From assembly GCF_003334335.1 (NCBI RefSeq), contig NZ_QOWQ01000005.1: a DNA stretch of 64,000 nt. One strand, 5' to 3'. This stretch comes from Escherichia coli. GTDB taxonomy: Bacteria > Pseudomonadota > Gammaproteobacteria > Enterobacterales > Enterobacteriaceae. This document shows positions 8,426 through 62,611 of this stretch, piece after piece (within the stretch, counting starts at the first letter, position 1; each line of letters starts with the position of its first letter). The notes under the pieces were generated by a model that was given only the letters and a program-made list of their open reading frames with translations, ran no database searches and was not told the origin of the DNA. The position numbers were made by a program, and so were the translations under genes.

Positions 8426-9676
8426 ATGATGGCGGGACCCGTTTTGTATCAGGACCGCGCCATGAAACAGATAACCTTTGCTCCCCGTAATCACCTGCTC
8501 ACCAATACCAATACCTGGACGCCCGACAGCCAGTGGCTGGTATTTGACGTGCGTCCTTCTGGCGCGTCGTTTACCGGCGAGACCATTGAGCGTGTGAATA
8601 TCCATACCGGCGAGGTCGAGGTTATCTATCGCGCGTCACAGGGCGCACACGTCGGCGTGGTGACCGTTCATCCGAAGTCAGAGAAATATGTTTTCATCCA
8701 CGGCCCGGAAAATCCTGATGAAACATGGCATTACGACTTCCATCATCGGCGCGGAGTGATTGTTGAAGGCGGCAAGATGAGTAACCTTGATGCGATGGAT
8801 ATTACCGCGCCGTATACGCCAGGAGTGCTGCGCGGCGGCAGCCATGTGCATGTCTTTAGCCCGAACGGTGAAAGGGTGAGCTTTACCTATAACGACCATG
8901 TAATGCATGAACTCGATCCGGCGCTGGATTTGCGAAACGTCGGTGTTGCTGCGCCGTTTGGCCCGGTCAACGTACAAAAGCAGCATCCGCGTGAATACAG
9001 CGGTAGCCACTGGTGCGTGCTGGTGAGCAAAACCACGCCCACGCCACAGCCTGGCAGTGATGAAATCAATCGTGCTTATGAAGAAGGATGGGTAGGAAAT
9101 CACGCGCTGGCATTTATTGGCGACACACTTTCGCCAAAGGGCGAGAAAGTGCCGGAGCTGTTTATCGTTGAGTTACCGCAAGATGAAGCTGGCTGGAAAG
9201 CGGCAGGTGATGCGCCGTTAAGCGGAACGGAAACAACCCTGCCCGCGCCACCGCGTGGCGTCGTGCAGCGACGTTTAACCTTTACCCACCATCGGGCTTA
9301 TCCGGGGTTAGTCAACGTCCCGCGCCACTGGGTGCGCTGTAATCCGCAGGGTACACAAATCGCGTTTTTAATGCGAGATGATAACGGCATTGTGCAACTG
9401 TGGCTTATCTCGCCACAGGGCGGCGAGCCGCGCCAGTTAACCCATAACAAAACGGATATTCAGTCTGCATTTAACTGGCATCCGTCAGGAGAATGGTTGG
9501 GCTTTGTGCTGGATAATCGAATTGCTTGTGCCCATGCGCAAAGCGGCGAGGTTGAGTATTTAACCGAACACCACGCCAATTCACCTTCTGCGGACGCCGT
9601 GGTCTTCTCGCCGGATGGTCAGTGGCTGGCGTGGATGGAAGGCGGCCAGCTGTGGATCACCGAAACTGATCGCTAA
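8426..9676 (+). CDS. yidR: DUF3748 beta-propeller-like protein YidR
   Basis: 416 aa ORF; synteny. Confidence 0.8.
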   Translation: MMAGPVLYQDRAMKQITFAPRNHLLTNTNTWTPDSQWLVFDVRPSGASFTGETIERVNIHTGEVEVIYRASQGAHVGVVTVHPKSEKYVFIHGPENPDETWHYDFHHRRGVIVEGGKMSNLDAMDITAPYTPGVLRGGSHVHVFSPNGERVSFTYNDHVMHELDPALDLRNVGVAAPFGPVNVQKQHPREYSGSHWCVLVSKTTPTPQPGSDEINRAYEEGWVGNHALAFIGDTLSPKGEKVPELFIVELPQDEAGWKAAGDAPLSGTETTLPAPPRGVVQRRLTFTHHRAYPGLVNVPRHWVRCNPQGTQIAFLMRDDNGIVQLWLISPQGGEPRQLTHNKTDIQSAFNWHPSGEWLGFVLDNRIACAHAQSGEVEYLTEHHANSPSADAVVFSPDGQWLAWMEGGQLWITETDR

Positions 9677-10220: not shown

Positions 10221-10315
10221 TAGCCGATGAGGACGCGCCTGATGGGTGTTCTGGCTACCTGACCTGTCCATTGTGGAAGGTCTTACATTCTCGCTGATTT
10301 CAGGAGCTATTGATT
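10221..10315 (+). promoter_or_regulatory. ibpA 5' UTR, candidate ROSE-like RNA thermometer
   Basis: About 95-nt leader between heat-shock promoter and start codon; thermometer assigned from established ibpA biology, structure not folded here. Confidence 0.45.
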
Positions 10316-10729
10316 ATGCGTAACTTTGATTTATCCCCGCTTTACCGTTCTGCTATTGGATTTGACCGTTTGTTTAACCACTTAGAAAACAACCAGAGCC
10401 AGAGTAATGGCGGCTACCCTCCGTATAACGTTGAACTGGTAGACGAAAACCATTACCGCATTGCTATCGCTGTGGCTGGTTTTGCTGAGAGCGAACTGGA
10501 AATTACCGCCCAGGATAATCTGCTGGTGGTGAAAGGTGCTCACGCCGACGAACAAAAAGAGCGCACCTATCTGTACCAGGGCATCGCTGAACGCAACTTT
10601 GAACGCAAATTCCAGTTAGCTGAGAACATTCATGTTCGTGGTGCTAACCTGGTAAATGGTTTGCTGTATATCGATCTCGAACGCGTGATTCCGGAAGCGA
10701 AAAAACCGCGCCGTATCGAAATCAACTAA
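10316..10729 (+). CDS. ibpA: Small heat shock protein IbpA
   Basis: [17 protein letters not shown]..., alpha-crystallin domain, 137 aa. Confidence 0.95.
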
Positions 10730-14134: not shown

Positions 14135-17455
<3,321 letters not shown>

Positions 17456-24439: not shown

Positions 24440-24545
24440 ATATTTGGACAAAACGCAAACTGTGATCGATACTCAACTATGCACTAAATACGTCAAAATT
24501 CGTGCCGAAATTGCGCGTTCTGCGCGGAACACGTATACTTTCAGT

Positions 24546-24620
24546 GTTGACATAATACAGTGTGCTTTGCGGTTACCAGCCGCAGGCGACTGACGAAACC
24601 TCGCTCCGGCGGGGTTTTTT
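24546..24620 (+). ncRNA. istR: IstR-1 antitoxin small RNA (longer IstR-2 isoform would start near 24481)
   Basis: About 75 nt ending in terminator ctcgctccggcggggtttttt; 5' region gttgacataatacagtgtgct nearly identical to plus strand 24288-24308, so complementary to the tisAB mRNA leader; candidate -10 tatact about 24534. Confidence 0.75.
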
Positions 24621-41421: not shown

Positions 41422-41516
41422 TGGCGGAAGATCACAGGAGTCGAACCTGCCCGGGACCGCTGGCGGCCCCAACTGGATTTGAAGTCCAGCCGCCTCACCG
41501 GAGACGACGATCTTCC
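41422..41516 (-). tRNA. selC: tRNA-Sec (selenocysteine, anticodon UCA)
   Basis: Reverse complement matches the 95-nt tRNA-Sec GGAAGATCGTCGTCTCCGGTGAGGCGGCTGGACTTCAAATCCAGTTGGGGCCGCCAGCGGTCCCGGGCAGGTTCGACTCCTGTGATCTTCCGCCA, with long extra arm. Confidence 0.95.
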
Positions 41517-50320: not shown

Positions 50321-50400
50321 TGCCTGATACGCTTCGCTTATCAAGCCTGCGTATTGATTCATAATTTATTGAATTTGTAGGGTGAATCGCATCCGGCAGG
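50321..50400. repeat. REP-like elements between gltS and recG
   Basis: gcctgatacgcttcgcttatcaagcctgc and gtagggtgaatcgcatccggcagg. Confidence 0.4.
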
Positions 50401-58861: not shown

Positions 58862-59152
58862 GGTTCTCTCCCTAAAAATCTGTCTGGCAGGGTAGCGATT
58901 TGTGCGTATTGTCACGATTGAGATTTTTTAAGGTGAGAGGAAATTGATAACTTGTAGTTATGTGAAATCGCTATTTTCTGTAGCGTAGATGCATTCTTCT
59001 GACTTCTTGTCTGAGAAAATGCATAAGAAAAAATAGGTTAAAATTGAGGGGTGGAAAAGAAAGGTGCAATGTTTAGCCATTGTGTTCACCGCACCTGGAC
59101 TTTGGCTTACGCATCGGGTATCTCAATCAACAAAAAGAGTTTTTAGTTTCTG

Positions 59153-60198: not shown

Positions 60199-61062
60199 TT
60201 ATTCAATATTCTGAATCTGCTCGCGCATCTGCTCAATCAACACTTTCAGCTCAATCGCGGAGTTTGTCACTTCGGCATTGATAGACTTCGACGCAAGAGT
60301 GTTCGACTCGCGGTTGAACTCCTGCATCATAAAGTCCAGACGACGACCAACGGCTTCTTTTTTCTTCAGAATGTTGTAGGTCTCTTTGACATGCGCTTCG
60401 AGGCGGTCCAGTTCTTCGGCAACGTCAATTCGTTGTGCCAGCAGAACCAACTCCTGCTCCAGACGGTTGTTTTCCAACTGAACCTGAGCATCTTCCAGCT
60501 TCGCGACCAAGCGTTCACGCTGCCATTGCAGGATTTCCGGCATATGGGAGCGGACTTTGACCACTTCGGCGGTGACGCCTTCCAGACGCTGCTCGATCAA
60601 TGCTTTCAGTGCCTGACCTTCGGTTTCGCGCGCGACAATAAAGTCGTCCAGCGTACCATCCAGCGCCGCGAGAATTTCAGCGGCAATGGCGTCAAGATCC
60701 TGCTCCTGGGCTGCCATCACGCCCGGCCAGCGTAGAATATCAACCGGGTTGATTTCCCCTTCGTCACTCTGCATTTTTACCCAGTTCGCGGCAGTTACCA
60801 GCTGTTTAGCCAGTTTTTCGTTGAGGATCAGCTCACCTTGCGCGCTAACATCTGGCTCATAGCGCAGGGTACATTCCACTTTACCGCGCGTCAGGCGAGA
60901 ACGAATACGCTCGCGAACGACAGGTTCAAGGCTACGGAACTGCTCCGGCAGACGAAAGTAAGTTTCCAGATAACGCTGGTTTACCGAGCGCATTTCCCAG
61001 GTTGCGCTCCCCCATTCACCCTTGATTTCACGCCGGGCGTAGGCGGTCATACTGCGGATCAT
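60199..61062 (-). CDS. yicC: YicC-family stress-induced protein (RNase adaptor)
   Basis: 287 aa YicC N- and C-terminal domains. Confidence 0.9.
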   Translation of the reverse strand: MIRSMTAYARREIKGEWGSATWEMRSVNQRYLETYFRLPEQFRSLEPVVRERIRSRLTRGKVECTLRYEPDVSAQGELILNEKLAKQLVTAANWVKMQSDEGEINPVDILRWPGVMAAQEQDLDAIAAEILAALDGTLDDFIVARETEGQALKALIEQRLEGVTAEVVKVRSHMPEILQWQRERLVAKLEDAQVQLENNRLEQELVLLAQRIDVAEELDRLEAHVKETYNILKKKEAVGRRLDFMMQEFNRESNTLASKSINAEVTNSAIELKVLIEQMREQIQNIE

Positions 61063-61188
61063 AGACGTTCCTGTTTATAAAAGGAGAGGTGGAAGGATTA
61101 TAGCCATCGATGCCTTGTCAGGATAGGAATAACCGCCGGAAGTCCGTATAATGCGCAGCCACATTTGTTTCAAGCCGGAGATTTCAAT

Positions 61189-61905
61189 ATGCGTCCAGCA
61201 GGCCGTAGCAATAATCAGGTGCGTCCCGTTACCCTGACTCGTAACTATACAAAACATGCAGAAGGCTCGGTGCTGGTCGAATTTGGCGATACCAAAGTGT
61301 TGTGTACCGCCTCTATTGAAGAAGGCGTGCCGCGCTTCCTGAAAGGTCAGGGCCAGGGCTGGATCACCGCAGAGTACGGCATGCTGCCACGTTCTACCCA
61401 CACCCGTAACGCTCGTGAAGCGGCGAAAGGTAAGCAGGGTGGACGCACAATGGAAATCCAGCGTCTGATCGCCCGTGCGCTTCGCGCGGCAGTAGATTTG
61501 AAAGCGCTGGGTGAGTTCACCATTACGCTGGACTGCGACGTGCTTCAGGCTGATGGTGGCACGCGTACCGCTTCGATTACGGGTGCCTGTGTGGCGCTGG
61601 CAGATGCGCTACAGAAGCTGGTGGAAAACGGCAAGCTGAAAACCAACCCGATGAAAGGGATGGTAGCCGCGGTTTCTGTCGGGATTGTGAACGGCGAAGC
61701 GGTTTGCGATCTGGAATACGTTGAAGACTCTGCCGCAGAGACCGACATGAACGTAGTGATGACCGAAGACGGGCGCATCATTGAAGTGCAGGGGACGGCA
61801 GAAGGCGAGCCGTTCACCCATGAAGAGCTACTCACCTTGTTGGCGCTGGCCCGAGGGGGAATCGAATCCATTGTAGCGACGCAGAAGGCGGCGCTGGCAA
61901 ACTGA
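61189..61905 (+). CDS. rph: Ribonuclease PH, apparently full length (238 aa)
   Basis: Start at [14 protein letters not shown]; ORF runs to ...[11 protein letters not shown]-stop, with no sign of the K-12 rph-1 frameshift. Confidence 0.9.
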
Positions 61906-61911
61906 TTTTTA

Positions 61912-61937
61912 AGGCGACTGATGAGTCGCTTTTTTTT
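61912..61937 (+). terminator. rph-pyrE intercistronic attenuator hairpin
   Basis: gcgactgatgagtcgc followed by T8. Confidence 0.7.
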
Positions 61938-61969
61938 GTCTGTAGAAAAGTAAGATGAGGAGCGAAGGC

Positions 61970-62611
61970 ATGAAACCATATCAGCGCCAGTTTATTGAAT
62001 TTGCGCTTAGCAAGCAGGTGTTAAAGTTTGGCGAGTTTACGCTGAAATCCGGGCGTAAAAGCCCCTATTTCTTCAACGCCGGGCTGTTTAATACCGGGCG
62101 CGACCTGGCACTGTTAGGCCGTTTTTACGCTGAAGCATTGGTGGACTCCGGCATTGAGTTCGATCTGCTGTTTGGCCCTGCTTACAAAGGGATCCCGATT
62201 GCCACCACAACCGCCGTGGCGTTGGCGGAGCATCATGACCTGGACCTGCCGTACTGCTTTAACCGCAAAGAGGCAAAAGACCACGGTGAAGGCGGCAATC
62301 TGGTTGGTAGCGCGTTACAAGGACGCGTAATGCTGGTAGATGATGTGATCACCGCCGGAACGGCGATTCGTGAGTCGATGGAAATTATTCAGGCCAATGG
62401 CGCGACGCTTGCTGGCGTGTTGATTTCGCTCGATCGTCAGGAACGGGGGCGCGGCGAGATTTCGGCGATTCAGGAAGTTGAGCGTGATTACAACTGCAAA
62501 GTGATCTCTATCATCACCCTGAAAGATCTGATTGCTTACCTGGAAGAGAAGCCGGAAATGGCGGAACATCTGGCGGCGGTTAAGGCCTATCGCGAAGAGT
62601 TTGGCGTTTAA
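61970..62611 (+). CDS. pyrE: Orotate phosphoribosyltransferase
   Basis: Start at [13 protein letters not shown] (213 aa). Confidence 0.95.

Follow-up and report, generated by a model that had tools for sequence, protein, structure and literature searches.

The window, that is, the whole 64,000-nt stretch of Escherichia coli DNA analyzed here, carries a full-length rph gene upstream of pyrE, and the locus is almost certainly an rph-pyrE operon of the ordinary wild type, from a natural E. coli that is phylogroup-A-like and does not belong to K-12. Full-length rph is the norm of the species and represents its wild-type state, MG1655 being the exception. As far as found, the only slightly new element is a minority allele of the pyrE attenuator, for which a functional description was not found; the locus is otherwise known biology.

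The rph gene and the rph-1 lesion

The rph gene occupies positions 61189-61905 on the + strand and consists of 238 codons followed by TGA, as obtained from the list of open reading frames and by direct reading of the sequence. It starts with the ATG at 61189, and its frame is uninterrupted as far as the TGA at 61903-61905 (+), which lies 5 nt before the extended attenuator hairpin and 8 nt before the G+C core of the hairpin. The interval 61189-61969 comprises exactly rph and the intercistronic region, the ATG of pyrE being at 61970. The sequence-only reading of this DNA had described an uninterrupted frame of 238 aa, and both its coordinates and its terminal peptide are exact.

The frame is a real gene and a chance open reading frame is excluded, since the product matches the RNase PH family over its full length and can be aligned with a known structure almost to its end. 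The match to the RNase PH profile (NCBIfam TIGR01966, an equivalog) has an E-value of 1.9e-114 and a score of 380.8 bits against a cutoff of 141.5, and it extends from end to end, residues 2-236 corresponding to profile positions 1-235 of 236. The alignment with the solved Pseudomonas aeruginosa structure 1r6l continues through residue 237. The C-terminal segment, including the last 15 residues, is present in the RNase PH of the window, whereas it is lost in the truncated protein of K-12. The window protein is identical to those of EDL933, MIN12, and EC416, which are annotated as WP_001247093.1, and this identity suggests that it acts as a phosphorolytic 3′-5′ exoribonuclease.

Upstream of rph, a divergent open reading frame matches the YicC family in a profile search. 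A promoter scan of the region upstream of rph gave no match. The hexamer TATAAT at 61147-61152 was considered as a promoter element and set aside, as a good -35 element is missing at 16-18 nt from it, and a promoter is not claimed. An antisense frame of 144 aa (61545-61979, opposite strand, inside rph) is treated as spurious.

The window frame reaches codon 238 because GGGGG is present where MG1655 has GGGG. This G5 run is located at 61855-61859 (+), in codons G223-G224, and alignments show that MG1655 and W3110 have G4 at this site, which is the rph-1 frameshift. In the shifted frame of MG1655, translation meets a premature stop 29 nt upstream of the normal one; the same TAG is found in the window at 61874-61876 (+), out of frame. 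In agreement with this, the NC_000913.3 entry for rph (b3643) is described as “truncated RNase PH” with a length of 687 nt, and its translation of 228 aa ends with ...LALARGESNPL*. W3110 and MG1655 have the same 70 bases in the region of the G run. The window shows neither the loss of one G from the run at codons 223-224 nor a frame closed by TAG after codon 228 and, consequently, does not carry rph-1.

The comparison of window positions 61100-62000 with the reverse strand of MG1655 yields 9 substitutions, two of which alter an amino acid, and two 1-nt indels, one in the G run (GGGGG versus GGGG in MG1655) and one in the hairpin arm (AGTCGC versus AGTCGCC in MG1655). The two sequences are not identical, and the position given earlier for the lesion is correct: the frameshift that the earlier reading placed near the 3′ end of rph in MG1655 and W3110 is the 1-bp deletion at codons 223-224. 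The polar effect on pyrE that it ascribed to this frameshift corresponds to published reports (PMC2784333 and PMC11148124, both citing Jensen 1993). The low PyrE level caused by the 1-bp deletion is described as acting through a translation-coupled attenuator (PMC2784333), and the truncated rph-1 product is devoid of RNase PH activity (PMC11148124).

The frequency of the two versions was assessed by exact matches among 5425 complete E. coli genomes, the G5 query being the 70-mer of the window that runs from the G5 run to the start of the hairpin. The G5 70-mer is present in 5160 genomes (~95%), including O157:H7, Nissle 1917, and HB101. The corresponding G4 70-mer of MG1655 is present in 168 of the 5425. 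Given these numbers, full-length rph is plainly the wild type. The 60 listed of these 168 are almost without exception K-12 laboratory strains (MG1655, W3110, BW25113, J53, HMS174, and their evolved derivatives). One clear non-K-12 genome is found among those listed, namely 2015C-3101 (NZ_CP027221.1), a human isolate with a 5.3-Mb genome, in which G4 stands in a non-K-12 SNP background and rph is annotated as “frameshifted” by PGAP (locus 244-959). Either this run has slipped independently in 2015C-3101, or its G4 reflects a sequencing error in the homopolymer.

The 3′ part of rph also contains the repeats of a known deletion. A sequence search finds the 10-bp direct repeat GCAGAAGGCG in exactly two copies in the window, at 61798-61807 (+) and at 61881-61890 (+), both intact and 83 nt apart. 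A recurrent adaptive deletion of 82 bp in rph-pyrE has been described for MG1655 (PMC2784333). In the K-12 stock NBRC 3301 (NZ_CP048439.1), the sequence between the two copies of GCAGAAGGCG is deleted, and this deletion matches the adaptive one known from MG1655.

Origin of the source strain

Over its entire length, the window aligns collinearly with positions 3877737-3813738 of MG1655 (reverse), with 99.61% identity, 240 mismatches, and 5 indel events. The indels are found at 50385, 59052-59053, 60156, 61859, and 61929. According to the MG1655 gene table, the G in rph is the only indel within a coding sequence, and the other four are intergenic. The indels at 50385, 59052-59053, and 60156 amount to -3, +2, and +1 nt relative to MG1655 and fall in the recG/gltS, dinD/yicG, and yicC/dinD intervals, respectively. 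The near-identity to MG1655 throughout that characterizes the K-12 lineage is not seen in the window, and the earlier suggestion of a non-MG1655 source is borne out.

The mismatches are unevenly distributed. Positions 1-41600 contain 8 SNPs and no indels, whereas ~232 SNPs (~1%) are found in 41647-64000. The switch in divergence lies between 40023 and 41647, beside selC (tRNA-Sec, 41426-41516), and it resembles the boundary of a recombination tract at a site of island integration. Beside selC, the segment 41182-41343 is also occupied by a RhuM-family remnant, which is incomplete and has an internal stop (PGAP, EC416 locus 9182-9343). Its location coincides in part with that of yicT, a pseudogene of MG1655, and the remnant resembles the scar of a former selC island. 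The tRNA-Sec gene (41426-41516, -) is one of four Rfam matches at gathering level in the window, all outside 61000-62100. The others are the ES036 sRNA (76-118, -), a ROSE_2 thermometer before ibpA (10250-10322, +), and istR, the partner of tisB (24491-24620, +). None of the four is unexpected in this chromosomal region of E. coli.

In the part of the window that is close to MG1655, the glvC-glvB equivalent is one continuous PTS frame of 538 codons at 14135-15751. It is unsplit owing to a single SNP at 15239 (C versus T), by which the window has CAG in place of the amber TAG of MG1655; the unsplit PTS gene reported from the sequence is therefore real. The adjacent glvG equivalent (15751-16565) does not differ from MG1655 and is annotated as frameshifted in EC416 by PGAP, and for these reasons it is still regarded as a pseudogene.

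The closest relationship is to natural isolates. All 64,000 bases are matched in the pig isolate EC416 (NZ_AP027404.1, 600388-664387), the only differences being 8 SNPs, without any indel. The rph of EC416 is annotated as intact by PGAP. Many phylogroup-A-like isolates are within a few mismatches per 25 kb of the window ends. Among the matches listed, EC416, BUCT2930, HH35, PO06021, and 23CRST021 are near-identical to the window in its left 25 kb as well as in its right 25 kb. The source is thus a natural strain related to K-12 but not belonging to it, and its sequence can be explained without invoking a repaired K-12 or a laboratory hybrid. Its phylogroup-A-like character is probable, since the first 41.6 kb of the window are nearly identical to K-12.

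Other origins of the full-length rph have been weighed. If the source were an rph+ K-12 strain (DH5alpha and JM83 are examples) or a derivative of MG1655 with a repaired rph-1, the first 41.6 kb would fit, as this part departs from MG1655 by just 8 SNPs and has no indels. Such strains do exist: DH5alpha is rph+, and JM83 has been described as an rph+ K-12 strain (PMC11148124). This origin is nevertheless extremely unlikely. DH5alpha equals MG1655 over 1871 nt except for one G, but 25 SNPs and one indel, the attenuator C, set it apart from the window over the same 1871 nt. Moreover, K-12 RNase PH has V138/I216 and that of the window A138/T216, the window and MG1655 are ~232 SNPs apart across 41647-64000, and the amber codon of K-12 glvC is absent. 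The comparison with DH5alpha and the SNPs relative to MG1655 over the whole window refute an rph+ K-12 origin.

A laboratory hybrid, in which a K-12 backbone had received the selC-rph segment by conjugation or transduction, would explain the sharp jump at selC, from 8 SNPs in 41.6 kb to ~232 in 22.4 kb. It is very unlikely all the same, because the combined haplotype occurs in nature: EC416 has it with 8 SNPs in the entire 64 kb, and the same five isolates (EC416, BUCT2930, HH35, PO06021, and 23CRST021) are near-identical at the left and at the right 25 kb. In addition, the non-amber glvC belongs to the 8 left-hand SNPs and is unexpected in true K-12 derivatives, and related E. coli commonly show mosaics of this kind. 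An error of sequencing or assembly in the homopolymer, by which one G would have been added to a gene that is truly frameshifted, has a vanishingly small probability. Homopolymer runs are error-prone, and the non-K-12 genome 2015C-3101 does have G4 with a “frameshifted” rph, but the G5 run is shared by the 5160 of 5425 complete genomes, which come from many laboratories and platforms, and the frame restored by it agrees with the family model up to the last position.

The pyrE attenuator and its coupling to rph

The intercistronic region contains the pyrE attenuator at 61911-61937 (+), identified by terminator scan and by folding, with a stem formed by AAGGCGACT and AGTCGCTTT. Its core GCGACT-GATG-AGTCGC (gcgactgatgagtcgc) is located at 61914-61929 and is followed by T8 at 61930-61937. 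The match of the terminator scan (61911-61932) has 9 pairs and a loop of 4, followed by the T-tract. The fold of a 46-nt segment gives -14.9 kcal/mol with z = -4.7, and none of 200 shuffled sequences folds as well (0/200). Between rph and pyrE there is therefore a G+C-rich hairpin with a U-tract, as required of an attenuator. An Rfam search of 61000-62100 gave no match even at E ≤ 1, and there is no family for the pyrE leader.

A terminating ribosome covers ~12-15 nt 3′ of the A site. With the rph stop at 61903-61905, the hairpin start at 61911, and the core at 61914, the geometry of the locus places the hairpin within this reach. The U-rich leader stretch between stop and hairpin is represented in the sequence by a T5 run at 61906-61910 (+), which, on the basis of the published model cited in PMC2784333, is a putative UTP-sensitive pause site. 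Downstream, pyrE extends from 61970 to 62611 (+) and encodes orotate phosphoribosyltransferase of 213 aa (TIGR00336, 240.6 bits against a cutoff of 106.8); its length and position are the same as those of b3642. The motif GAGGAG at 61957-61962 (+), 7 nt before the pyrE ATG, is a Shine-Dalgarno-like candidate recognized from the sequence only.

The attenuation model that has been published for pyrE is reportedly credited to Bonekamp 1984 and Jensen 1993. When UTP is scarce, RNA polymerase would lag in the U-rich leader, and the ribosome finishing rph would then occupy the 5′ arm of the hairpin; with the terminator blocked in this manner, transcription would read through into pyrE. Conversely, when UTP is plentiful, the polymerase would run ahead of the ribosome and terminate. 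In MG1655 and W3110, the loss of one G would cause translation to stop 29 nt early, and the ribosome would never be at the hairpin, so that rph-1 would give high termination and low PyrE. In the window, the G5 run would allow translation to continue to the normal stop, and the wild-type geometry of coupling would be retained. The rise of pyrE read-through at low UTP belongs to the model of the papers cited in PMC2784333. The geometry of the locus suggests that attenuation works normally in the source strain, and the pyrimidine pseudo-auxotrophy of MG1655 and W3110 should not be assumed for it.

The attenuator had been called intact in the sequence-only reading. The string of the hairpin with its T8 is exact, but the allele is a minority one with one stem C fewer: the 3′ arm reads AGTCGC in the window and AGTCGCC in MG1655, the difference lying at 61929/61930. 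The window 70-mer across the hairpin (C followed by T8) is found exactly in 488 of 5411 complete genomes (~9%), while the MG1655-type 71-mer (CC followed by T8) is the majority form, with exact matches in 4581 of the 5411. Among the aligned examples, CC+T8 is present in MG1655, EDL933, DH5alpha, and 2015C-3101, and further variants are C+T7 in MIN12, CC+T9 in EC116, and CC+T7 in ER1709. EC416 has C+T8 and does not differ from the window anywhere across 61189-61969.

Because of the missing C, the basal G-C pair of the stem, beside the U-tract, becomes G·U or stays open. In equal context, the predicted energy of the hairpin is -14.9 kcal/mol for the window and -16.9 kcal/mol for MG1655, that is, ~2 kcal/mol weaker in the window. 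For the core stem, the values are -10.0 (with the G·U pair) or -8.4 (with 6 pairs only) in the window versus -11.7 in MG1655. On these predictions, the set-point of attenuation might differ slightly from that of the K-12 rph+ reference behind the model.

It is doubtful, though worth considering, that the shorter stem terminates less and thereby raises the basal read-through into pyrE in this lineage while rph itself is wild type. The weaker predicted energies of the whole hairpin and of its core would point in this direction, and the C-deleted allele, being a stable minority form (488/5411), is no error. Against such an effect, the attenuator still has 9 pairs in its stem, 4 of them G-C, together with the full T8, the natural T7 and T9 variants suggest that small changes are tolerated, and rph and pyrE are otherwise intact. 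It is likewise unlikely that the C-deleted attenuator is a functional natural variant that would weaken the pyrE terminator and reset the UTP set-point in one sub-lineage. If this were the case, the model of “normal” coupling derived from K-12 would not fit all wild E. coli quantitatively. The reading preferred here remains that of an ordinary wild-type operon, with which none of the observations conflicts.

Comparison with known loci

The window locus and the rph-1 locus of MG1655 and W3110 have in common the gene order yicC / rph-pyrE / slmA, the core of the hairpin, the T8 tract, and the start of pyrE, and the nucleotide identity between the window and the MG1655 locus is ~99%. They differ in the length of RNase PH, which is 238 aa in the window and 228 aa in MG1655 rph-1, and in the distance from the rph stop to the hairpin, which is 5-8 nt in the window and ~35 nt in MG1655 rph-1. 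Two residues also distinguish the proteins, namely A138 and T216 in the window versus V138 and I216 in K-12 (MG1655 and DH5alpha). The rph+ K-12 lineages (DH5alpha and ER1709, protein WP_001247096.1) share with the window the G5 run and the full-length RNase PH of 238 aa, but they differ from it in their V138/I216 SNP background and in the CC hairpin arm. The common rph allele WP_001247093.1 is accompanied by CC+T8 in EDL933 and by C+T7 in MIN12, whereas it is joined to C+T8 in the window and in EC416.

UTP-sensitive attenuation is also known at pyrBI of E. coli. As a background comparison, pyrBI resembles pyrE in having a U-rich pause region, a translating ribosome, an intrinsic terminator, and read-through at low UTP. 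The two systems differ in the message on which the coupled ribosome is engaged: at pyrBI it translates a short dedicated leader peptide, whereas the message translated at pyrE is the 3′ end of a full-size gene, rph.
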